A stretch of DNA of 37,343 bases from Candidatus Nanoarchaeia archaeon (GCA_035256305.1 DATEYH010000138.1:1-37343); one strand, 5' to 3'. Counted from the first letter of the stretch, positions 358 through 35,906 are shown. Notes: generated from the sequence alone by a model not told the origin. Numbers and translations are program-made.

Positions 358-1350
358 TCATCGCCATTTGACAGAAACATCATCTGTTCTTTCATAAGGC
401 CTGATATCTGATTCTTCTACTTTTGCCTTCATGCCTGCCTTGTGCATCTCAATGCCTGTTATTGCTATCATAGCTGCATTGTCTATCAGGAACTGGTTAT
501 CAAGCACAAAGCTTTTGGCTCCTCTTTCCTCGCACATAATCCTGCACATCTCCTGCAAACGCTTGTTGCAAGCAACTCCTCCTCCAAGGAGCAATTCATT
601 CTTGCCTGTATGAGCCATTGCCCTCTCAGCAACCTCAACAAGCATTGCAAACACTGTTTCCTGCACGCTATAGCAAAGGTCTTCTTTTGAGTAATGCTTT
701 GAGCTTATCTTGCTTCGCAGGTTAGTCTCCATGCCTCCAAGGCTTATGTCCATTCCTTTAACGCTATATGGCAGCTTGATGTATTTCTTCCCTTGCTTTG
801 CGTATTCCTCAATCCTTGGGCCTCCTGGAAAGCCTAAGCCAAGCTCTCTTGCAAAGCTGTCAAGAAAATTTCCTGCTCCAAGGTCAAGGGTTTCCCCAAA
901 AACGCGGTACTTGCCTGCCTCGTAAGCAATCACCTGGGTGTTGGCTCCTGAAACATAAAGCAGGACAGGGTCTTTGGCTTTTGTCAAAAAGCGTCCAATC
1001 TCGAGGTGGGCTATGCAATGATTAACTCCTATGAGCGGCTTATTAAGAAGCAAGGCAAGGCTTCGGGCAACTCCTGCGCCTATCCTGAGGGCGTGCCCTA
1101 TGCCTGGGCCTTGGCTGAAAGCAATAAGGTCTATACTCTCTGGTTTTATGCCAGCCTTTTCCAAGGCTTTTTTCAAAGTCTCATCAAGAACCTCAACATG
1201 GTGCTCTGCAAGCTTTGCAGGGATTAATCCTCCGCTCTCTGTCTTGTAGGCATTGATTATGTTAGAAAGCACTTTATTATGAGAAAGCTTTAATTCTACA
1301 ATGCTTATTCCAAAGGTGTGGGCTGTGCTCTCTATTCCTAGGCATATCAT
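358..1350 (-). CDS. kae1: tRNA N6-adenosine threonylcarbamoyltransferase Kae1 (Kae1/TsaD ASKHA family), stand-alone form
   Basis: 330-aa ORF with GIESTAHTFG, NHCIAHLEIG and GGGVACN motifs typical of Kae1/Gcp; no Bud32 fusion. Confidence 0.9.
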   Translation of the reverse strand: MICLGIESTAHTFGISIVELKLSHNKVLSNIINAYKTESGGLIPAKLAEHHVEVLDETLKKALEKAGIKPESIDLIAFSQGPGIGHALRIGAGVARSLALLLNKPLIGVNHCIAHLEIGRFLTKAKDPVLLYVSGANTQVIAYEAGKYRVFGETLDLGAGNFLDSFARELGLGFPGGPRIEEYAKQGKKYIKLPYSVKGMDISLGGMETNLRSKISSKHYSKEDLCYSVQETVFAMLVEVAERAMAHTGKNELLLGGGVACNKRLQEMCRIMCEERGAKSFVLDNQFLIDNAAMIAITGIEMHKAGMKAKVEESDIRPYERTDDVSVKWR

Positions 1351-10979: not shown

Positions 10980-11813
10980 TTATGTTAACCTTTTCCTCTT
11001 AGATTTTTCAGGCTCTGAAAGGTAGCTTTCTTTTGAGGTTATGGGTTTGCCTATTTCTTTCTCAGCATCTTTCCTGGCTTTTCCAGCAACCCTTCCCCCT
11101 CTTCTTGCTGAATCCTGGCATTGTTTGAGCCCTTGCGAGTCTTTTGTTTGAGTAATCTCAGTGGTTACTTTCTCACCAAGCATAGTAAATATTAATTCTA
11201 AATCATTCATATGATCTCTTAAGTTATGCCTTTTCAAGCCTTTGAACTGCTTGTATTCTTCAACAGTCTTTCCAAAAGTAGCCTTGCTAATATCGTTGGT
11301 TAATATCGCGAACTCAACATTCTCATCAACACCCCTGTTCTTCCACTCATCAGTCAGTTCCTGTCTTATAGCGATTCCCCTAACTCTCTTCTCAATCCAC
11401 TCATCAGAATAACCTTTGGCCCGGTAAAGCTCTTTCATTCTCTTCTGGGCTAACTCAGGATCCTGTATTTCCTGCACTCTTTCATAGCCAACCTTTGCAA
11501 GCCAAAGCTTGAAAGGCTCTGCCTTGGGTGATGGGATAGACTGGATAATCCTGAACATATTTTTGGTATTTGCGCAGTCAGTTTCCCTTAGTTTACCATC
11601 TTCTGCTGGTAATTTCAACTGTAAACAAAATGTTAACAGTTGAGGCTCTCGGCTCTTTAAAACGCCCCAATACTGTCTGGGACTAGGGCTATCAGTTAAA
11701 GCTTGCACAATATCAACAACTGAGAAATACCACTCATCATTATGCCAAACCCTTCTGATTTTCTTGTCCTGAAAAACAACCAGTGCCTTGTCTTGACTAA
11801 CATTTTCTGTCAT
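10980..11813 (-). CDS. Bro-N domain protein (phage antirepressor / DinD-like)
   Basis: N-terminus LVVFQDKKIRRVWHNDEWYFSVVDIVQALTDS is the Bro-N pattern; basic C-terminal tail. Confidence 0.7.
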   Translation of the reverse strand: MTENVSQDKALVVFQDKKIRRVWHNDEWYFSVVDIVQALTDSPSPRQYWGVLKSREPQLLTFCLQLKLPAEDGKLRETDCANTKNMFRIIQSIPSPKAEPFKLWLAKVGYERVQEIQDPELAQKRMKELYRAKGYSDEWIEKRVRGIAIRQELTDEWKNRGVDENVEFAILTNDISKATFGKTVEEYKQFKGLKRHNLRDHMNDLELIFTMLGEKVTTEITQTKDSQGLKQCQDSARRGGRVAGKARKDAEKEIGKPITSKESYLSEPEKSKRKRLT

Positions 11814-23230: not shown

Positions 23231-23389
23231 ATACTAACTTAGGATTAGCAAGTATAACTACCTGTGGTAGTAGAAATTATCTGAAAAGCCTTAAGGAGTA
23301 GTTATTTACCAAAAATCAAACAATACCTCTTAATTCAGTTTGAGGTTTTACTTCGCTTATTTGATTACAAAAAAAGCATACCTCGTTGT

Positions 23390-23612
23390 TTACAGCGAGG
23401 ATTGGTTTCCTTTTTTTGGATCAACAAAAGCTTTGCTTTTGAGCGCCAAAACAAAGTTTTGAGCGCAACAACCTCGCTTAATGCTTTTTTTGTACCAACA
23501 AAAGCTCTGCTTTTGAGTGCCAAAAAGCTTCGCTTTTTGAGCACAACATACCTTGCCCTTTAGGGCGAGGTTGTTGATTTTTGGAAATAATTCAGCCCGA
23601 AGGCCGAAATTA
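23390..23612 (-). repeat. cluster of four A/T-foot hairpin modules plus a 12-bp long-range inverted repeat and a UUCG-capped hairpin, in the 3' flank of the Lrp-like gene
   Basis: Units at 23424-23446, 23447-23466, 23499-23521 and 23521-23544 (minus-strand reading GCTCAAAAGC-loop-GCTTTTG-TTG). Inverted repeat 23466-23477 / 23565-23576. Hairpin 23586-23616. Confidence 0.7.
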
Positions 23613-24164
23613 TTTATCCAAGAAAAAATCATTTGATAAAGCTTCTTCAGGGTTAAGAATCGTGTTCAACAGGCCGATATGATTTGTTTTGATAATCCTA
23701 TCAACTGAAAAAGGGTAGACATTCACTATTTCAATCTCTTTTGAATATTTGCTTTGCAGCCTCATCAGGTACCTGTCCTTATCGTCAATATTCTTAAAGC
23801 CCATGACCAGCAAATGGGAGATTCTTGATTCAGGGACACGATACGCGATTATCACCTGCGGAATTTTTAGTATTTTTTCAGCGATCTCCTCCTCTGAATA
23901 CTTGTTCCAAATATACTGGGTAAACCTTACGCCTAAAACAACCAATGCCTCAATCCCAATTTTTTTATAATCAATGATAGGCATATACCCCCTTATTATC
24001 CCTACCTTCTCAAGCTTATGCCTGATCTTGAAGATTGCTTGCTGGGAGAGCCCCATCTTATGGGCGATTTCCAAATCAGGTATTTTGGCCTGCTCAATAA
24101 TCTTTTTCAGAACTTTTTGCTCGTTTCTTGTTAATTTAGGAAAGTTAACATCGGGCTTTTCCAT
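23610..24164 (-). CDS. Lrp/AsnC-like HTH transcriptional regulator
   Basis: N-terminal LTRNEQKVLKKIIEQAKIPDLEIAHKMGLSQQAIFKIRHKLEKVGIIRGY (winged-HTH AsnC type) plus a C-terminal alpha/beta domain. TTTATATA about 23 nt upstream of the ATG. Confidence 0.7.
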   Translation of the reverse strand: MEKPDVNFPKLTRNEQKVLKKIIEQAKIPDLEIAHKMGLSQQAIFKIRHKLEKVGIIRGYMPIIDYKKIGIEALVVLGVRFTQYIWNKYSEEEIAEKILKIPQVIIAYRVPESRISHLLVMGFKNIDDKDRYLMRLQSKYSKEIEIVNVYPFSVDRIIKTNHIGLLNTILNPEEALSNDFFLDK

Positions 24165-24230: not shown

Positions 24231-24359
24231 CGCCACGGCCCGGACTTTCAATGAAACTTAATCTCTCAGTTTCTTCTTTGAACCAGGAATTCCTTGCGGA
24301 ACCAGCTTTCCAGCTTAATGCCTCAAGGCTGGCGCACTACCAGATTATGCGACCGTGGC
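24231..24359 (-). tRNA. tRNA-Ser(UGA), class II, with two introns (14 nt at 37/38, 24308-24321; 32 nt in the T-loop at 59/60, 24245-24276)
   Basis: Hand fold: acceptor GCCACGG/CCGUGGC, discriminator G, D arm GCAU/GUGC, anticodon stem CCAGC/GCUGG, loop CUUGAG-A, long variable arm UUCC-GCAA-GGAA, T arm CCUGG/CCGGG with loop UUCAAA-U after splicing. Confidence 0.75.
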
Positions 24360-24540
24360 AAAAAAATTTTATTTTTTTGGACGTTCGCATACTCAAAAAT
24401 TGTAAATGAATTTTGTTGTACGCCTTTTTTAGGCGTGCTCAAAAATTGTGAAACAATTTTTGTTGTATGCGACCGTGGCACGAAGTGCTAGGTTGCATTC
24501 AGAAATTTGGAACAAATTTCTGTTATGCGACCGTGGCAAG
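24360..24540 (-). repeat. 5' leader of tRNA-Ser with two extra copies of tRNA nt 1-14 (GCCACGGUCGCAUA), one imperfect inverted copy and four hairpins
   Basis: Plus-strand TATGCGACCGTGGCA at 24346, 24466 and 24524. Hairpins CAGAAATTTG/CAAATTTCTG, CAAAAATTG/CAATTTTTG, ACGCC/GGCGT, CAAAAATT/AATTTTG. Inverted copy GGACGTTCGCATA at 24379-24391. Confidence 0.8.
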
Positions 24541-25443: not shown

Positions 25444-25504
25444 GGCAAACCTCTTTTTGTTGGAGTATTTATACTCCAATTCAAAAATCTTTAGTTTTTG
25501 TTAA

Positions 25505-26029
25505 CTAGCCTACTCCACTAGCATCTGCTTCTATTTTTAAAAACTTTTTTATTTCTGCCTCAAGCCTGTGCAAGTCCTTGTCAAAAGGGTCAATATAATT
25601 TATCTCCAGCTCATTCTTCAAGACGACCTTGCTAAGGAACATCTCCATGAGCTTGTGCACAGTATTATCTGGCTTGTAACGCTTCTGCCAGTCAGTTATG
25701 ACCGCGCCCTCTATCTTGATATCAATCCTTCCGTGCATCTTCATCACCTGGCGGCCATTCTCCACCACAGGCACCTCCCTTGACTCCCACAAATGATAAT
25801 GCACTTCCGCCCTGTACTGATAGTACTCTGTGACCTCCTTCTCCCCCCAGACATCCACCTCAAGCTCATTCCCAAGCGCAGTGTCTATCTTGTCCTTGTA
25901 GCGCTTCTCATGCACCCTGAACTGGCGCTTCAGCATCCAATTCCAGACAAAGCGATAAAGCCCTTCCCAGTCAAAATAGCCCTTGTAGCGAATCTTCAGT
26001 GGAGCTGGAAAAACATCCTTTTTATTCAT
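25505..26029 (-). CDS. uncharacterised protein, paralog A
   Basis: 174 aa; see paralog B. No signal peptide and no known motif. Confidence 0.5.
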   Translation of the reverse strand: MNKKDVFPAPLKIRYKGYFDWEGLYRFVWNWMLKRQFRVHEKRYKDKIDTALGNELEVDVWGEKEVTEYYQYRAEVHYHLWESREVPVVENGRQVMKMHGRIDIKIEGAVITDWQKRYKPDNTVHKLMEMFLSKVVLKNELEINYIDPFDKDLHRLEAEIKKFLKIEADASGVG

Positions 26030-28022: not shown

Positions 28023-28555
28023 TTAAGAATAAAACAAAAATTCTTTTTTATATTTAATTTTGAAACATAATTTCTTAGAAATAATAAATTAATGATAGCT
28101 GTTCATAGGAATCAACAACCAAGGTTGTTGAGCCAAAAATTCTGAGGAATTTTTGTGCATCATAGTCTTTGCTTCTCAGAGCCAATTCTCTGATTTGATT
28201 GTTAAATGAGAGATTGGACTTATTAGTGGCTGCATGCTGAGCACCTTGTTGCCTTGGTGCGTACACACCAGCTCTATCAACCCGATCTTCTATCGGCGTC
28301 CATGAGCGTCTCTTTTCAAGGATGGCTTCATACTTAGATGCTTTCAGTATTTATCCATGTAAAGCGTAGCTGCCCGGCCTACCCTGTCGGATAACCGGTC
28401 GACCAGAGGCTTCGGGCCCTCGTTCCTCTCGTACTAAAGGTCCCTTCCTTTCAGACACCCAACACTTCCAGTAGATATCAAACAAACTGCCTCGCAGCGT
28501 TCTGAACCCAGCTCACGATCCCTTTTGATAGGTGAACACCCTCACCCTTGGCCGC

Positions 28556-28588
28556 ATACAGTACCTTCTTACTTTCGCAAAAAGGTTA
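28556..28588 (-). other. 33-nt BHB-type mini-intron in 23S domain V (hairpin after GAUGUCGGCU)
   Basis: Outer helix GGCCG/CGGCC, central helix GCAG/CUGU, bulges AAU and AUG, inner helix ACCUU/AAGGU. Removal gives CCGUGCAGAAGCGGCC, the conserved archaeal LSU sequence as I recall it. Confidence 0.6.
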
Positions 28589-28852
28589 TTCTGCACGGCC
28601 AGGATAGGAAGAGCCGACATCTATGTAGCAAACCGCGCCGTCGATAGGAGCTCTCGGGCGCGACAACTCTGTTATCCCCGGAGTAACTTTTCGGTCGGTA
28701 CCGTCCCCCATTCAAGGAGGAACGGCAGTTCGTTAGGCCCAACTTTCGTTTCTGGTATTCTTCTTATTCAAATACCAGTCAGGCTGGCTTTTGCCCTTAC
28801 ACTCAACATCGGATTTCTGACCCGACTGAGCCAACCTTGGGGCGCCACTGAT

Positions 28853-28897
28853 ATAAAGCGAGCATAGACAAGCTTTATCAAGCAATCTATTGCTCAT
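28853..28897 (-). other. 45-nt BHB-type mini-intron in 23S domain V
   Basis: Textbook helix-bulge-helix-bulge-helix: GCCGCUGA/UCAGUGGC, central AAAG/CUUU, two AUA bulges, inner helix UGAGCA-UAGA/UCUAUGCUCG. Removal gives GCUGAAAAGAUAUCAGUGGC. Confidence 0.75.
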
Positions 28898-29233
28898 ATC
28901 TTTTCAGCGGCGTGCCACCCCAGCCAAACTGTCCACCTGCCGGTGTCCAAGTCACAAGGACTTGTGAGCAGCGTAAAACCAGATGAGTAGTGTTACATCG
29001 ACGTCTAAACCTGCACTTGCATGCAAGCCTCAAACAACTCCTACTTACTCTATACACCCGGTCTCACGTTGCAGCAACAGGCTACAGTAAAGTTTCACGG
29101 GGTCTTCGCTTCCCACTGGAAGTCTCTGGTCTTTGCACCAGAACAAAATTTTCAGAGGGTTCCGGTTGGGGACAGTGGAGATCTCGTTACGCCATTCATG
29201 CAGGCCGTCAATCAAACGGCAAGGCATTTCGCT

Positions 29234-30005
29234 CACATCTGTTACTTCCCTTAAAATTTAAGGTACTGACCTTCTCTTTAAGGCGGACAAGCATTTCTAC
29301 TAGTTGCTCAAAAATCTCAAATGATTTTTGGCAACCCCAAAACCACATGGTTTTGATGTCTCCTCACATCGCTATGAGGGTCGGACTATATCTTAACACT
29401 CATCAAAGAGTGTTTTTGGCGTATAGTCTCTGAGGATTCTAGACGCCTTATGACTTTTCGGTTCATCTCAGAAGCAAGTTCAGCTATTTTCTCTAAGCCT
29501 GCTCTTGACAAGTGCTCCTTTTTATTCATAATCCCTAATATTTGTGCAAAGAGTTCAAAGCTATTCTTCTTAGAAGTTTGAAGAGGATTTTCATTTATGA
29601 ACTGAACTATACGGTTCAGGTTGTCTAATCCTCTCACTCGGAACTCTTTCCTATCTCCGTTATTCACAGTTACGCTTCCAAAACCAAAATATGACTTGAT
29701 TCTGTGAAGTACTGCTTCATCGCGTTGATGTTGCACTATCCTTAATTCAGGGAGTACCTGCCATTTTAAGGTCATTTTCTCTAATCTATTAATAGACACA
29801 TGAAAACAACCTTCTCCATCAATGAATCCGACAATCCACTTAGCATCCAGTCTTTCCTGCTGATTATCTGCACCTATCACTTTTTCACCCTGACAACATA
29901 TAAACGTTTTAATTTAAATAGCTCACGTTAATATGTCCAGTGGTAGTGTAGGACTCTCAGACGTCCCAGCATATAGCCAGATTGTTTAAGGCAACTTCTG
30001 TGCTT
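29234..30005 (-). mobile_element. group I intron (772 nt) in 23S domain IV, carrying a LAGLIDADG homing endonuclease ORF
   Basis: Interrupts CUUAAGGU|AGCGAAAUGCC. The 5' exon ends in U, paired as U.G in a 7-bp P1 with internal guide GCCUUAA 13 nt into the intron. The intron ends in G. AAGAUAUAGUCCGACC (the classical S/P7 3' element) follows the ORF, with candidate P7 partner GGACAUAU. Confidence 0.75.
29386..29880 (-). CDS. LAGLIDADG homing endonuclease (single-motif type)
   Basis: KWIVGFIDGEGCFHVSI motif near the N-terminus; 164 aa; GTG start; sits inside the intron and its stop codon lies within the AAGAUAUAGUCC core element. Confidence 0.85.
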   Translation of the reverse strand: MIGADNQQERLDAKWIVGFIDGEGCFHVSINRLEKMTLKWQVLPELRIVQHQRDEAVLHRIKSYFGFGSVTVNNGDRKEFRVRGLDNLNRIVQFINENPLQTSKKNSFELFAQILGIMNKKEHLSRAGLEKIAELASEMNRKVIRRLESSETIRQKHSLMSVKI

Positions 30006-30837
30006 ACCTTAAGAGAGTTATAGTTACTCCCGCCGTTTACCTGTCCTTCGTTCCCTTGGATGGGATTTTCAGATACAGGCACTGGGCAGACGTCACCGAC
30101 TATTCTAGCCCTTACGGGTTGGCAGTCGGTTAAGTTTTTGTTAAACAGTCGGACCTCCTTTGTTACTGTGCCTTACACTCGCATTCTTATGAATACAAGT
30201 GTAGGGACCCCTTAGACCGAAGGCTTGGGGCTAATTTGCCGAATTCCCTCAACCAGATTGTCCCTTCTCGCCGTGGGCTTCTCACCCAGGGGCACCTGTG
30301 CCGGTGCTGGGTATAGACATAAAGGATTTTTCCCTGTTCCCTTTTCAAGGGCTCCGGGTATTAGCTGAACAATACTTAAGTACTGCTGTTCTAAGAGTTG
30401 ACCAGGTTCTCATCGTTACGATACTCCCCTGACCTGCCCTTATTAACAATCCCGACGGGGATTGTCAGCCTAACCAGAAGCGTCAGGAACAAGGCTTGCG
30501 TTACCGCACATACCAATATGGTACAGGAATATTAACCTGTTTCCCTTTCCTCTACTAGCTCAAGTTATGAGCTGAGTTAGGACTAACTTACCCTTGGCTG
30601 ATCTGCATTGCCAAGGAACCCTTGCCCTTTCAGCGACACTGATTCTCACAGTGCTAAGTTCTTACTATTACCAGGATTCTCATTCCTGCAAGATTGACCT
30701 CTCCTCTCGGAGAAGCTTCTGCTCTAGCAGGACGCCTACCTACCGCAACGCTTGCGCGTGCCAGCGGTCTCGGTGACTGATTTAGCCCCGTCCATCTTAG
30801 GCGCTCATAACCTCGAAGAGTAAGCTGTTACGCACTT

Positions 30838-30870
<33 letters not shown>

Positions 30871-32235
30871 CGCTGTCTTTGGTTATGAACAACCTTCACC
30901 CTTTCACACTTAACCAATGCTTAGGGACCTTAACCGCTGTCTGGGTTGTTCCCCTCTCGCGCATCACCCTTACGACGATGCGCCGTCTCCTGAGGTCTAC
31001 AGTGCATGGGACTTTGGAGTTGGACAAAGAACCGACCACTTTCGCGGCCTAAATCCTAAATCCGTAGCTCTACCTCCCAGGCAACCTCGCTCAGGGCTTG
31101 ACTGCAGCCAACTTCGGTAGGAACCAGCTATCGCCGAACTCGATTGGCTTTTTACCCCTACGCTCAAGTTAGAAGAACATTTGTACATAGAACCTCTGCA
31201 GGCCTCCACCCTTCTTTAGAAGGGCTTCACCTTACCCAAGTGTAGTTCGTCCGGCTTCGGGTCTGGTCCGAGTGACTAAAGGCGCTTTCACACCTCTCCC
31301 CTCGCATGCTGCGGGATATTGCTTTCGCTTTGGATGCCCATTGATTAATGGTTATCCTTGCCACTCAGACAAACTCCCTGGCTCGTTATTCTAAACGCAC
31401 GATACACAGCCGAAGCTGCGTATCCCGCTGTATCTACTAGGTTTCAAGTTCTATTTGACTCTCTGTCAAGAGTTCTTTTCAGCTTTCCCTCACGGTACTG
31501 GTTCGCTATCGGACTCAAAACGTGTTTAGGGTTAGGAGTTGATGCCTCCTAGCTTCGCACCTAGTATCCAGTAGGTGCTACTCAAGATACTGCCACGCCT
31601 CCCTGACTCCCTCTACGGGACTATCACCCTCTATGGTACTTCTTTCCAGAAGACTTTGAGTCATCAGGGTAAGGTCTAAAAGACAGTCTTACAAATCCAC
31701 ATCCCATCTCATTTTTCAATGAAAGGTTCAGATTGCCCTTTGCTGCTTTCGCTCTCTGCTAATAACAGCATCCTTAGTTTAGTTTCTCTTCCTGCAGGTA
31801 CTAAGACGTTTCAGTTCCCTGCGTATAGCTAGCCTTTCGGCTTCAAAGCGAAGTCGCATTCAGAAATCCCTGGTTCAACCCCTGCGTGCGGGTCGCCAAG
31901 GCTTTTCGTGGCTTGCCACGTCCTTCTTCGCCGTCTTGAGCCAAGCTATCCTCCTAGTAGAGTATTTTCTCTCAGAACTTAGCAATCATTTCAGAGACTT
32001 ATCTCTGTGTTGCAAAGACCAATAATTTCCTATGAACAGCCTTCATTAAACATGAGTAAATGAATATTGGTCGACATGAAAAAGCATGTCTTCTCGTGTT
32101 CTGAGCTTCTTCACCCAGCAAGTCTTAGTTGCCGAGCTGCTAATAAAAAATTGAATATGAAATGTAAGTGGACTCTGCGACAACAAAAATCGCGAAGCGA
32201 TTTTTGAGTCCTCGAGTCCATCTCACTTCGTTCGA

Positions 32236-32377
32236 TGGACTCTGCGGGAATTGCGTCCTCAGAGTTTATGTAATAAACTCTGATGTTGTATTCGCACCCG
32301 CGGCCCCCACCTCTCTCAAGCAAAAGCTCTTGCCTTTTGCATGCAAGGGTGGTGCTCTACTACTGAGCTAAGAGCCC
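32236..32377 (-). tRNA. tRNA-Ala(UGC) in the 16S-23S spacer, with two introns (29 nt at 37/38, 32313-32341; 41 nt in the T-loop at 59/60, 32250-32290)
   Basis: Acceptor GGGCUCU/AGAGUCC with the G3:U70 Ala identity pair, D arm GCUC/GAGC, anticodon stem CCACC/GGUGG, loop CUUGCA-A, variable GGGCC, T stem GCGGG/CCCGC. T-loop intron flanked by central helix UGCG/CGCA and bulges AAU/AUU. The mature T-loop UGCGAAU and D-loop AGUAGUA are atypical. Confidence 0.75.
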
Positions 32378-33224
32378 ATGCCGGGGGTATAATCCCCTTT
32401 TGCTCCTGTGAATAGCAAAAAAATAATGTGGTAGGAGAAGAACTAGCCTAACAAGATTCTAATATTTATATAAAAAATTATAGGAGGTGATCCCACCGCA
32501 GGTTCCCCTACGGTGACCTTGTGACGACTTAACCCATCTCACTGAACTCAGGTTCAACACAACCAAGAAAGCTGTGTTTCACCTAAACCCTGCTCGATTG
32601 GTTTGACGGGCGGTGTGTGCAAGAGACAGGGACATATTCACCGGACTATGCTAAAATCCGATTACTAGGGATTCCATCGTCACGAGGCTGAGTTACAAGC
32701 CTCGATCTGAACTAAGATATGGTTTAGAGGTTTAGCTCCCCCTTTCGGGGTGGCATCCCATTGTCCATACCATTGTTGCGCGCGTGTAGCCTAGAGCATT
32801 CGGAGCATACAGACCTACCGTAGCCTGCACCTTCCTCCCTGTTTCCAGGGCAGTCCCCTCAAAGTGCTCAATCCATCCGTGGATGTTGTTAGCAATAGAG
32901 GGTACAGGTCTCGCTCGTTGCCAGACTTAACTGGACGCTTCACAGCACGAGCTGGCGACGGCCATGCACTACCTCTCGGCTTGTCAGGTAATGTCTTCAG
33001 CATGACCTTCATTCTGCCGTCGGCTCTAGTGAGGTTCTCTGCGTTGAGTTAGATTGAACCGCACGCCGCACCCCTTGTGGTGTCTCCCCGCCAATTCCTT
33101 AAAGTTTCAGCCTTGCGACCGTACTTCCCTGGTGGCGAGCTTAACGACTTCTCTTCGACACTGCGCATCCTCGTGGGGTGCGCAATACCTTGCTCGCAGC
33201 GTTTACAGCTAGGACTACTCGGGT

Positions 33225-33368
33225 AATTAGCACCTTTATTTCCATAACGTATCAGAATTTGCAATGGATTGTAGTAATTTTTTCTTGGCAAAAACAAATC
33301 GTTCAGTGGGTTTTAACGAAGTTAAAATCCCACATTGCATTTTTTGGTACAGCTTTGATTAAAGGTGT
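33225..33368 (-). other. 144-nt BHB-type intron in 16S, inside the GGAUUAGAUACCC block
   Basis: Central helix UUAG/CUAA, bulges AUA and UUA, 8-bp inner helix CACCUUUA/UAAAGGUG. Cutting after the 2nd bulge nt restores GGAUUAGAU|ACCCGAGUAGUCC. Contains a 12-bp UUCG-capped hairpin. Confidence 0.8.
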
Positions 33369-33852
33369 ATCTAATCCGTTTTGCTCCCCTAGCTTTCGTT
33401 CCTCACAGTCGGACCCGTCCTGGCCAGATGCCTTCGCCATTGGTAGTCCTCCCTGGATTAACCCATTTTACCGGTACCCAAGGAATACTTCTGACCTCTT
33501 CCGGTCCCGAGTCTTGTAGTGTCCTCTGCACGCCGACAGGTTAAGCCTGCCGATTTCACAAAGGATTTTCAAGACCTGCTACGAACGCTTTAGACCCAAT
33601 AATCGTGATGACCACTTGGGGCGCTGGGGTTACCGCGGCGGCTGGCACCAGTCTTGCCCACCCCTTATTCGCCAAGCTTTTTACACATGGCAAAAGCCTA
33701 TCAATGATAAGCACTTGGGATCCCCTTCTCACACTTGCGTGCATTGGAAAGGTTTCGCGCCTGCTGCACCCCGTGGGGCTGGGACCAGTATCTCAGTGTC
33801 CCTCTCCGGGCTCCCACTCTCATGGCCCGTACGGATCCTAGGTTTGGTGGTC

Positions 33853-33896
33853 TTGTAAGCGCCAGCTTACAACCCAAAAGGGTTAGCTTTTGCGTG
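33853..33896 (-). other. 44-nt BHB-type mini-intron in 16S (helix equivalent to E. coli ~255-270)
   Basis: Outer helix UUGGCGGU/ACCACCAA, central helix GUAA/UUAC, bulges UGC and AAG. Removal gives UUGGCGGUGUAAUGGACCACCAA, colinear with the conserved UUGGUGGGGUAACGGCCCACCAA. Confidence 0.65.
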
Positions 33897-34391
33897 CATT
33901 ACACCGCCAACAGCCTAATCCGCCGCCAGTCCATCCTATGGCACGAGTTTAAGGAAGAGCCCATTCCAGGGCTTGTTCCCTATCAGGTATTACCCTCACT
34001 TTCGCGAAGCTATCCCCGACCATAGGGCAGGTTACCGACGTGTTACTGAGCCTTTCGCCTCCATTGCTGGATGACTTGCATGGCTTAATCGGATCCCAAT
34101 AGCAGCAATCTCCCGCAGGATCAACGGGAACTGATTATTTGATTATTCGGCTAAAACTTTAATGAAACTTTATTAGAATTCTGCTAAACAGGATTCTTTC
34201 TCCTACCAGTATACTTGAATAGCTAGTTCAAGCATGAAACAAACTTTTCGAGTTATGCTGATGCAAAAGATGCTTAATCCAGACTTTCGTCGAGATGTTT
34301 TTAATTCTGCATAACTATGGCGCTGATCGCTTGTAGAGAATCAGTGTTTAGATCCTCGCCTGAAAATGCGTGTTTTCAGAGAGTTATAGGG

Positions 34392-34400: not shown

Positions 34401-34542
34401 GCTTTTCGGTATTACAAAAATCTATGATTTTTGTATATAAAATTCATTTTTAGTGAATTTTGTTTTAATATTTTGCGGTTTCAACCAGTAAATTGGTTCA
34501 GCAGAAAAATTTATAACCCTGCACATTGAATGGAGTGTTGTT

Positions 34543-35538: not shown

Positions 35539-35702
35539 TGCCCCGAACGGGATTTGAACCCGTGTCCTCGGATGTTTTCGGCGTGAGGCAAAAACCTCAG
35601 CAACTTTGTTGCTCGCCGCGAAAATCCGAGATGATTGTTCCCGCAAGGGAACCAAGGAAACAGCTTCCTTGTTTCCTTTGGACCGGACTACACCATCGGG
35701 GC
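35539..35702 (-). tRNA. tRNA-Glu(UUC) with two introns (about 43 nt in the D-loop, 35635-35677; 45 nt at 37/38, 35574-35618)
   Basis: Acceptor GCCCCGA/UCGGGGC, D region GUGUAGUCCGGUCCAA..UCAU typical of archaeal tRNA-Glu, anticodon stem UCGGA/UCCGA, loop UUUUCG-A, variable GGAC, T arm ACGGG-UUCAAAU-CCCGU. D-loop intron ends are ambiguous by about 2 nt. Confidence 0.8.
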
Positions 35703-35705
35703 AAG

Positions 35706-35906
35706 TGGGCCCACAGGGACTTTCACCAGATATTTGCACCTTCGGTAACGCGGAGGACTTAACGAAGTTAATGTCCTCCTTGCTTGCTTTTTACCAGATT
35801 TTTCGGCAAAAATCTGTTTTGAACCCCAGACCCCCGGCTGTCCTATTCAGTGTTCGAAGCACTGCCTTATAAGACCGGTGCTCCAGCCAGGCTAAGCTAT
35901 GGGCCC
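35706..35906 (-). tRNA. tRNA-Ile(UAU) with two introns (28 nt at 37/38, 35840-35867; 98 nt in the T-loop at 59/60, 35720-35817)
   Basis: Acceptor GGGCCCA/UGGGCCC, D arm GCUU/GAGC, anticodon stem CCGGU/GCCGG, loop CUUAUA-A, variable GGGUC, T stem UGGGG/CCCUG. T-loop intron has a canonical BHB: central UUCA/UGAA, bulges AAA and AGU, inner helix CAGAU/AUCUG. Only 3 nt separate it from tRNA-Glu. Confidence 0.85.

Follow-up and report, generated by a model that had tools for sequence, protein, structure and literature searches.

Among the closest described counterparts of the hairpin module reported here are the bacterial REP/BIME sequences, which go with RAYT Y1 transposases, and the REPINs. The module shares with them short imperfect palindromes that are numerous and almost always intergenic, tandem and mosaic clusters with other hairpins, a strand asymmetry with an unpaired base in the foot of the stem, and a copy number that varies by species. 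Imperfect palindromes of 20 to 40 nt that are repeated (16 in the window against 0.6 expected) and intergenic (62 of 64 copies) are also what we found, the window being the whole stretch of DNA that was analyzed (37,343 nt). REPs are described as having a conserved GTAG or CGTC tetranucleotide at one end (PMC3733652). The module carries no such tag and has CTC and GTTG as its invariant flanks; only a 15-nt core is conserved, and both the inner and the outer stems differ between copies. It departs from REPs also in that direct and inverted duplications of the target flank its copies and the same core spans very distant lineages, whereas REPs are species-specific; the 30 proteins of the window include no RAYT. 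MITEs, which derive from DDE transposons, have terminal inverted repeats and duplicate a set length of their target site, and an autonomous element is related to them. In the module, by contrast, the direct repeats measure 10 to 20 nt and are not fixed, an inverted copy of the target is present, and no transposase occurs among the window proteins.

Also among the closest are hairpin repeats reported from organelles, namely sponge mitochondrial RHEs, the palindromes of Volvox and Lobosphaera, fungal double-hairpin elements and GC clusters; in these accounts they are tiny and noncoding, lie in spacers, introns and rRNA or tRNA flanks of compact, AT-rich genomes, and are absent at the orthologous sites of relatives (PMC2800124, PMC2670323, PMC4524435). 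The module has the same traits and differs in its host (archaeal chromosomes) and in its core sequence, which is invariant. Template switching, for its part, is reported to create perfect hairpins and apparent compensatory changes without selection (PMC7954356, PMC5728401). The module has in common with the products of template switching, snap-back synthesis and tandem inversion duplication a 10- to 20-nt copy of adjacent sequence, first inverted and then direct, at the hairpin junctions; its arms are such copies and show no wobble bias. Template switching, however, uses any local microhomology, whereas the junction of the module is always the same asymmetric sequence of 22 to 28 nt, missing at the empty site, and the origin of this conserved core is left unexplained by that process.

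Sites that work as folded single strands (integron attC, the attP of CTX phage, the end hairpins of IS200/IS605) offer a further likeness: they are recognized by structure and not by sequence, their active strand is marked by unpaired bases, the stem sequence varies, and strand polarity is strict. In attC, complementary R'' (RYYYAAC) and R' (GTTRRRY) boxes close the hairpin, and the sites are spaced by gene cassettes; in the module, CTC and GTTG are noncomplementary, modules lie 20 to 70 nt apart, and there are no cassettes. IS200/IS605 elements insert 3' of a fixed target of 4 to 5 nt without duplicating it and have subterminal hairpins at both ends. From the elements derived from them (PATEs), the module is set apart by duplications at 24 of 62 copies and by the lack of a common tetranucleotide before the upstream repeat. 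DPANN archaea have tiny, compact genomes, and their mobile DNA and repair have been little studied. A full-text search of the literature returned no description of the hairpin module in DPANN or other archaea; it is apparently undescribed, and REP/MITE-like is apparently its best reading.

The hairpin module and its copies

The window belongs to an AT-rich archaeal contig (41.6% G+C), and contigs nearly identical to it occur in several assemblies, including GCA_964514695.1. Rfam searches of the whole window in gathering and E-value modes returned the rRNAs, a weakly scoring group I intron and a spurious match to tmRNA, and nothing else. ARAGORN and Rfam made no tRNA call in the window; the tRNAs, recognized by visual inspection, contain introns, which is why ARAGORN misses them. 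The host genes that matter below are the following.

23610 to 24164, minus: Lrp-like gene with a weak MarR/winged-helix match, adjoining the hairpin cluster
24231 to 24359, minus: tRNA-Ser(UGA), whose anticodon loop and T-loop are both interrupted by introns, read from the sequence and missed by ARAGORN and Rfam
28202 to 31977, minus: 23S rRNA of the rRNA operon
32236 to 32377, minus: intron-bearing tRNA-Ala(UGC) in the 16S-23S spacer
32482 to 34131, minus: 16S rRNA of the same operon

Hairpins with a CAAAA/TTTTG foot are far more frequent in the window than chance allows. We counted hairpins without mismatches, with stems of 6 bp or more and loops of 9 nt or fewer, and compared the count with 300 dinucleotide-preserving shuffles; there were 16 where the shuffles gave 0.62 ± 0.82 (maximum 5), and 9 CTC-flanked hairpins where 0.07 were expected; other 5-mer feet occurred in 0 to 4 hairpins each, except for the overlapping AAAAA foot. 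The first-pass annotation of this DNA, which had proposed such a comparison with shuffled sequence, had claimed at least ten copies of one form. The family is indeed enriched, but the literal form CTC...TTTTGTTG occurs in only six copies, the others being variants. A second check that it had proposed, a covariance model, also came out in its favor: a model (R1) built from 57 copies outside the window, from other genomes alone, recovered seven full-length copies in the window with E-values from 8e-9 to 1e-3, one strand scoring far above the other. In three unselected relatives, 45 kb in all, the same model gave no hit below E=0.05, as against seven in the 37-kb window, and the density of the module is lineage-specific. 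The copies and related hairpins of the window are listed here.

319 to 360, minus: module 6 nt past the stop codon of kae1/tsaD and followed by a diverged copy of the gene's last 15 nt (R1 43.1 bits, E=8e-9)
23425 to 23441, 23447 to 23461, 23499 to 23515 and 23521 to 23539, CTC on minus: four hairpins of the cluster, two ending in TTTTGTTG and two in TTTTGGC(R) with a longer stem and a bulged U
24360 to 24540, plus: leader array of tRNA-Ser, with CTC on the plus strand, antisense to the tRNA
24383 to 24427, 24429 to 24474 and 24489 to 24534, plus: the three leader modules, the last a CAGAAA/TTCTG variant
24359 to 24379: A/T hairpin of the leader array
25481 to 25502, plus: degenerate copy TTCAAAAATC...TTTTTGTTA between two minus-strand genes
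28134 to 28155, no strand assigned: related hairpin with the foot CAAAAATTC/GAATTTTTG in the 23S 3' trailer, beside a CAACAACC-ttg-GGTTGTTG hairpin
29298 to 29340, plus: weak GGC-type copy in the 3' part of a 773-nt insertion in the 23S rRNA, antisense to the rRNA (R1 18.2 bits, E=0.04)
29338 to 29355: hairpin neighboring that copy
32172 to 32217, minus: module at the 3' end of the spacer tRNA-Ala(UGC) (R1 36.8 bits), with the last 12 to 13 nt of the tRNA as its target and TCGAACGAAGTGAGA as its segment x, defined below
34415 to 34433, no strand assigned: CAAAAATC-tat-GATTTTTG, a symmetric form that lies upstream of the 16S rRNA at a distance of about 285 nt and lacks the asymmetric flanks

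One further copy with the same layout lies in the same genome just beyond the edge of the window. The four minus-oriented copies of the cluster (two of them GGC type), the three oppositely oriented ones in the tRNA-Ser leader and the one in the 16S-23S spacer are located where the first-pass annotation had placed them; the one that it had placed in the 23S intron is present as well, though weak, and the tRNA-Ile and tRNA-Glu intron hairpins that it had counted as relatives are ordinary intron hairpins and not this module.

Read on the CTC strand, the module has an outer helix that varies in sequence and is closed by a G·T pair. Inside it come CTC, a stem of A-tract against T-tract whose inner part is variable, a short loop and GTTG. 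Its core of about 22 to 28 nt can be written (R)-CTC-A4-5-N0-5-loop-N'0-5-T4-5-G-TTG-(T). The outer helix abuts the motif directly, the 10 nt on each side pairing in archaeal matches, and the unconstrained interior also forms a hairpin. Among the matches listed, positions 2 to 6 of the outer helix are Watson-Crick in 41 to 46 of 64 archaeal copies and in 5 to 15 of 36 bacterial controls; at position 1, the 64 archaeal copies have G·T in 32 and A·C in 2. When the 57 copies from outside the window are aligned, 86.6% of the cells are paired, compared with 46 to 55% after the partners are slid. The inner stems vary from copy to copy, and the copies are therefore not simple recent products of one master element. 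The hairpin of the first-pass annotation thus stands, but the module is larger and more asymmetric than was described, with a variable outer helix, a conserved G·T pair, a duplication of the target and a tie to the ends of genes and tRNAs that had all escaped notice.

Scanning one genome per prokaryotic species for the pattern CTCAAAAAT-N3-13-ATTTTTGTTG gave at least 120 loci. Among the matches listed, about 52 are archaeal and bear mostly DPANN labels (Woesearchaeota, Nanoarchaeota, Pacearchaeota, Aenigmatarchaeota), the remainder of the archaeal ones being labeled "uncultured Methanosarcinales," "archaeon" or similar; the archaeal share of the matches listed is far above the share of such genomes in the collection. 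An outer stem with at least 5 of 6 pairs is present in 28 of the 55 archaeal pattern matches listed, with G..T at the junction in 26, and each of the two features occurs in only 2 of the 67 bacterial matches listed. Among the matches listed, the composite structure is restricted to archaeal, mostly DPANN-labeled ones. A viral origin was considered and rejected: 29 pattern matches were obtained from IMG/VR, and the outer stem of at least 5/6 and the G..T junction were each found in 0.

The insertion at the Lrp-like stop codon

The Lrp-like protein has 214 homologues with identities of 70 to 95%, and those whose source is named are labeled Woesearchaeota, Nanoarchaeota or Nanoarchaeia, from which we take the host to be a Woesearchaeote and hence a DPANN archaeon. 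The hairpin cluster on the 3' side of its gene is absent at five orthologous loci (L126 to L130; 85 to 95% protein identity). Alignment with these loci delimits an insertion of 308 nt, listed here with its parts and the adjoining gene end in minus-strand order.

23302 to 23609, minus: whole lineage-specific insertion, 308 nt, between the Lrp-like stop codon and the conserved block "CTACTCCTTAAGGC..."; it holds the reported cluster
23610 to 23627, minus: E_up, the copy of the target that is continuous with the gene, made up of the gene's final 18 nt, stop codon included, TTTTTCTTGGATAAATAA
23591 to 23609, minus: x, a GC-rich mini-hairpin CGGCC-ttcg-GGCTG immediately past the stop codon
23574 to 23590, minus: E', the inverted copy of the gene end, in minus sense TTATTTCCAAAAATCAA, which pairs with E_dn
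23544 to 23576, minus: accessory hairpin with arms of the CAACAACC.../...GGTTGTTG type, whose 5' arm also matches 23466 to 23477
23521 to 23539, minus: GGC-type hairpin CTCAAAAAGC-gaa-GCTTTTTGGCA, first of tandem pair 1
23487 to 23526, minus: canonical module CTCAAAAGC-aga-GCTTTTGTTG with flanks, second of pair 1 (R1 26.6 bits, E=2e-4)
23447 to 23461, minus: GGC-type hairpin CTCAAAAC-ttt-GTTTTGGCG, first of pair 2
23413 to 23452, minus: canonical module CTCAAAAGC-aaa-GCTTTTGTTG with flanks, second of pair 2 (R1 29 bits, E=5e-5)
23302 to 23319, minus: E_dn, a diverged direct copy of the gene end, TTGATTTTTGGTAAATAA, after which the ancestral downstream flank CTACT... comes next

The empty site is preserved in L127, L128 and L129 (85, 89 and 95% protein identity), where TTTTTCTTGGATAAATAA is joined directly to CTACTTTTTAAGGC..., the flank that leads into the promoter of a small zinc-ribbon gene. 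The order gene end, mini-hairpin, E', hairpin nest, E_dn and CTACT flank on the minus strand indicates that the 308-nt block is one insertion with the layout of the family. We read 23390 to 23612, the region to which attention was first drawn, as the inner part of this one insertion, which then grew through a 74-nt tandem duplication (pairs 1 and 2, 90% identical over 42 nt) and through extra palindromes. Tandem Repeats Finder reported nothing within the cluster. L130 and L126 have short duplications of the gene end (37 and 12 nt) at the same site, with no modules, and for this reason the 3' site of the Lrp-like gene is regarded as a hot spot.

A quite different reading would make the Lrp-like 3' flank a conserved structured noncoding RNA of about 220 to 300 nt, or else an array of binding sites through which the Lrp-like protein regulates its own gene. 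The cluster does fold far better than its shuffles (z = -7.6), it contains nested long-range inverted repeats, among them the 12-bp repeat 23466 to 23477/23565 to 23576 of the first-pass annotation, whose arms match exactly, and the regulator gene has a hairpin array on either side. The opposite strand, however, folds equally well (z = -8.0), so that folding cannot assign a strand to the cluster, and Rfam 15 covariance models gave no match at E≤1 in the cluster region or in any copy of the module. The absence of the block at five orthologous loci, one of them at 95% protein identity, largely refutes this reading; the same module also stands at unrelated genes in many genomes, and its inner and outer stems vary with a freedom that a protein operator could not tolerate. 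We therefore hold a conserved RNA or operator here to be very improbable, and the idea that the flank is one structured RNA of about 220 nt finds no support as far as conservation is concerned. The inverted arrangement of the two arrays around the Lrp-like gene is real as geometry but incidental: one array goes with the 3' end of the Lrp-like gene, its counterpart with the 5' end of tRNA-Ser. From these comparisons, the cluster reads as a young, lineage-specific pile-up of modules and not as a conserved RNA.

Target duplication, polarity and the tRNA-Ser leader

The typical layout on the CTC strand is [E]-x-E'-module-[E]. Here E stands for a target segment of 10 to 20 nt, in most cases taken from the very start or end of a tRNA or protein gene. 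E' repeats E in inverted orientation and pairs with the downstream E to give the outer stem, and between the upstream E and E' lies x, which is either a short loop or a stable mini-hairpin. To our knowledge, neither this layout nor its polarity toward gene ends has been described for organelle hairpin repeats. The target is duplicated: with at least 9 of 10 matches required, and repeats of 10 to 20 nt in length, the 10 nt 3' of TTG recur directly within 100 nt upstream in 24 of 62 copies, compared with 3 to 5 of 62 in three mirror controls. The full three-part layout is likewise found in only 24 of 62 copies. At the 3' ends of tRNAs, x contains a GCGAAG-type motif in four genomes and can form the GCGAAGC mini-hairpin, which is very stable. 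The duplicated targets that we could recognize are as follows.

First 15 nt of tRNA-Ser: the window, L126 and L130
Last 12 to 14 nt of tRNA-Ala: the rRNA spacer of the window
Last 12 to 14 nt of tRNA-Ser: L126 and L130; in L126, ARAGORN calls an intact tRNA that ends in the upstream copy
Last 12 to 14 nt of tRNA-Thr: L110
Start-codon regions: L064, L074, L079 and L105
Last codons: kae1 in the window and one gene in L052

In all nine cases with a recognizable gene or tRNA end, the functional E contiguous with the gene is the upstream copy, which leaves the TTG side of the module pointing outward from the gene.

The leader of tRNA-Ser differs between strains. Its array duplicates the first 15 nt of the tRNA, with two extra copies of the 5' end TATGCGACCGTGGCA. 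Three contigs that are 99.6 to 99.9% identical to the window (L001, L002 and L004) lack 24400 to 24516 and have a single different unit, CAGAAAC-tgcg-GTTTCTG, in its place; relative to them, the leader in the window has three modules and 117 extra nt. Across loci, L128 and L129 are without an insert at the 5' end of tRNA-Ser, and there the promoter TTTAAAAA is separated from the tRNA by about 27 nt. L126 and L001 have a single unit at this end and L130 has two, compared with the three modules of the window. Copies are thus present or absent even between close relatives. BLAST of the cluster and the leader against all collected sequences returned self matches and short tRNA-end matches only, with no longer homologue.

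Direct repeats around an insert, targets at tRNA 5' and 3' ends and at gene 3' ends, and restoration of the gene call to mind the classic integrase pattern of tRNA and gene-end targeting with gene restoration. The copies could accordingly be remnants or miniatures of site-specific integrative elements (tyrosine-recombinase, casposon-like or circular single-stranded), the E repeats being attL and attR cores. The tandem units of the tRNA-Ser leader share the repeat, as such elements would, and by analogy with CTX phage and integron attC, strand exchange in one hairpin arm of a circular single strand might yield E-loop-E'-rest-E. Against this, the inserts are just 50 to 310 nt long and contain no genes, and one conserved module abuts unrelated cores. 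E differs from copy to copy and is matched to its own site in every one, so that no pre-formed attachment hairpin can have been carried in from elsewhere; a site-specific recombinase would account for the direct repeats and the choice of tRNA ends, but not for the inverted copy of the local target in every module. The repeats vary in length, whereas casposons make a fixed 14- to 15-bp repeat; the window has no integrase, and paired R''/R' boxes of the attC kind are missing from the module. An integrative-element origin is on this evidence improbable, though less so than the structured RNA or operator discussed above.

Proposed insertion at the DNA level and possible signals in RNA

The evidence from both sites bears on what the hairpins are. 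The first-pass annotation had left three options: REP/MITE-like elements, bidirectional oligo-T terminators or an RNA-processing signal. The first is favored by the five orthologous loci without the cluster, by the leader copy number that differs between strains, and by the target duplications that flank the copies. We lean, by a modest degree of confidence, toward reading the hairpins as a short, strand-asymmetric insertion module, common in Woesearchaeota and other DPANN archaea, that inserts at the DNA level.

The inner stems of the copies stay complementary while their sequences change, and the first-pass annotation had taken this as selection on a hairpin. That conclusion does not follow, because the copies are not orthologous and each is an independent palindrome. 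Beyond the junction, the outer stems contain 32 G·T or T·G pairs and 22 A·C or C·A pairs, so that wobble does not clearly exceed A·C; the lack of a strand-specific wobble excess fits palindromes that were made as DNA and then decayed. For RNA discovery in general, this is a caution that perfect "covariation" in repeated hairpins need not mean selection on RNA.

A function in RNA nevertheless has points in its favor. The hairpins might be bidirectional transcript ends, terminators or signals for processing or stability, the copies being selected for hairpin and U-run, and the arms derived from the target would then let mRNAs, tRNA precursors and rRNA spacers end in a strong stem. Every copy has a run of T4 to T7 on both strands, and T-runs are the kind of signal at which archaeal RNA polymerase terminates. 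Several copies stand directly past stop codons or tRNA 3' ends, ahead of a native T-run, and others lie in regions of processing, namely the rRNA spacer, the trailer and the tRNA leader. The conserved junction G·T can pair on the CTC strand only, and the core is kept across DPANN lineages. Orientation, however, tells against a terminator. Of the copies, 62 of 64 are intergenic; in codirectional spacers, 25 are antisense and 9 sense, and 12 lie in divergent spacers, where there is nothing to terminate, as against only 8 in convergent ones. An archaeal oligo-T or intrinsic terminator would be expected downstream of genes, co-oriented with them and depleted between divergent genes, which is not the distribution found. 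Mixed orientation and copies between divergent genes argue against a dedicated terminator and also against any single role at the RNA level. At 5' ends the transcripts would read CAAC...GAG, the reverse complement, in which A·C is a mismatch, so that one RNA-binding factor could not serve both contexts. In the tRNA-Ser leader, T5 to T7 runs between the ancestral promoter and the tRNA body would impede expression and not aid it, and orthologous genes in relatives manage without the module. The outer stem without wobble excess, the lack of bulge-helix-bulge geometry and the absence of an Rfam family match add to this, and we judge an RNA-level function unlikely. Were it correct all the same, the module would be a new archaeal transcript-end signal.

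Several named RNA motifs were compared directly. A bulge-helix-bulge has two 3-nt bulges on opposite strands with a 4-bp helix between them; in the module, the unpaired CU and UUG are directly opposite each other, with no register that has a 4-bp central helix, and this assignment was rejected. Kink-turn, C/D box and Sm-site readings were rejected as well, on geometry or sequence, when set against the consensus.

For the DNA-level insertion that we prefer, a mechanism can be sketched. The module would insert as DNA, probably folded as a single strand, and fold-back or template switching during synthesis around the hairpin might produce the copies E' and E. Arms that consist of adjacent sequence copied inverted and then direct, at the hairpin junctions, are the signature of such synthesis. 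A simple copy-back origin of the core itself was rejected, as CTC faces GTTG and not GAG. Fold-back or template switching leaves the invariant asymmetric core unexplained, and the core is absent at empty sites; a trans-acting enzyme that acts on the folded single strand, in the manner known for REP/RAYT, IS200/IS605 ends or attC sites, is for these reasons the most economical addition, and the core could be the recognition site of such a conserved enzyme. Any effects on transcripts, through the T-runs and stable 3' hairpins, would then be secondary. In its strongest form, which we offer only tentatively, the proposal is of a new insertion pathway in DPANN archaea, in which an enzyme would recognize the folded asymmetric hairpin (G·T, CTC/GTTG) on single-stranded DNA, insert it at gene and tRNA ends and copy 10 to 20 nt of the target, inverted and then direct. 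Some features sit badly with insertion in general. The repeats of 10 to 20 nt are unlike the fixed duplication of a classical transposase, the asymmetry of the core is not explained by simple cut-and-paste or fold-back models, and the appearance of the conserved core at a new site fits no model that we considered. It is unusual for selfish repeats to keep one core over DPANN lineages that lie so far apart, and this conservation could be a sign of a function for the host.

If the insertion reading is right, a widespread module of 25 nt that repeatedly lands on tRNA and gene termini and copies its target in both orientations would be a record of insertion or repair activity and would explain the hypervariable tRNA leaders and trailers seen between strains; an enzyme-inserted module would be a new kind of mobile element or a repair scar with a protein of its own. 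Of all the features, the layout with its copied target, and the polarity of that layout, most deserve further work. Blocks of modules also matter for annotation: they affect the calling of tRNA and rRNA genes and yield false ORFs and apparent "structured RNAs."

The 30 proteins of the window include no transposase, RAYT, integrase or Cas1 and no match to Y1_Tnp, and a metagenome scan with the neighboring TrmB-like protein as the query found no relatives. A match to HTH_OrfB_IS605 (E=8e-4) in the ORF at 25505 to 26029 is a weak hint only of a mobility gene in the window.

The 3' end of the Lrp-like gene and module arrays elsewhere

Two orthologs of the Lrp-like gene carry short duplications of the gene end without any copy of the module, the strand-asymmetric hairpin unit that occurs four times in the window's 308-nt insertion. 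The final codons and stop codon are tandemly duplicated at both loci, over 37 nt in L130 (947-1010) and over 12 nt in L126 (10538-10570), and these duplications lie at the exact site of the insertion. An 80-aa ORF that runs across the hairpin cluster (23390-23632, minus strand) is placed wholly inside this lineage-specific insertion and is almost certainly spurious.

On further contigs from Woesearchaeota and Nanoarchaeia, modules and a second hairpin alternate along arrays, indicating that the array architecture is recurrent.

Alternating arrays in other genomes
L111, 2880-3060: three 53-nt units
L118, 4680-4800, minus strand
L058, 3110-3230
L059, about 720-800, minus strand: tandem pairs of a GGC-type module (the variant ending TTTTGGC(R)) and a TTG-type module, resembling the window's two pairs

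Sequences that adjoin the modules

A GCGAAG(C/T) motif repeatedly adjoins modules and also forms the loop region that separates E, the 10 to 20 nt of a gene or tRNA end, from its inverted copy E'. It is found in the window at 23525-23533, 23345-23353, and 32222-32235, and among relatives in the tRNA-Ser trailers of L126 and L130 and in the T-loop intron of L129. In sequence the motif corresponds to the GCGAAGC mini-hairpin, a very stable DNA structure, and it may represent a second sort of hairpin "cap" used by the same process as the modules.

A second type of palindrome, with arms CAACAACC / GGTTGTTG, has one site in the 23S 3' trailer (28110-28131) and three in the cluster (23544-23576 / 23466-23477); an A/T-foot hairpin adjoins it at every occurrence.

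tRNA genes with introns

Four tRNA genes in the window, each with one or two introns, some of them in the T-loop, are called by neither ARAGORN nor Rfam.

tRNA genes missed by ARAGORN and Rfam
24231-24359, minus strand: tRNA-Ser-UGA
32236-32377, minus strand: tRNA-Ala-UGC with G3:U70, in the 16S-23S spacer
about 35703-35905, minus strand: tRNA-Ile
35546-35703, minus strand: tRNA-Glu

A weak Rfam "tmRNA" match at 35546-35631 is spurious and covers the T-arm region of tRNA-Glu. The anticodon of the syntenic tRNA-Ser upstream of the Lrp-like gene varies: the window and L128 have UGA, L126 and L130 have GGA, and L129 has GCU. The T-loop insertion of this tRNA gene is wholly unlike between relatives in both length and sequence.

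Insertions in 23S and probably 16S rRNA, and hints of mobile DNA

The 23S rRNA gene contains a 773-nt insertion (about 29237-30009, minus strand) at model position about 2030, within which lies a LAGLIDADG endonuclease ORF (29386-29880). Its only match to a group I intron is subthreshold (31 bits versus a gathering score of 50). The 16S gene exceeds the model length by about 170 nt and thus probably contains an insertion too. Elsewhere in the window, a 174-aa ORF (25505-26029, minus strand) has a weak match to the IS605 OrfB/TnpB helix-turn-helix that fails the cutoff (E=8e-4), and an ORF at 10980-11813 (minus strand) encodes a Bro-N domain, which is typical of viruses and mobile DNA.
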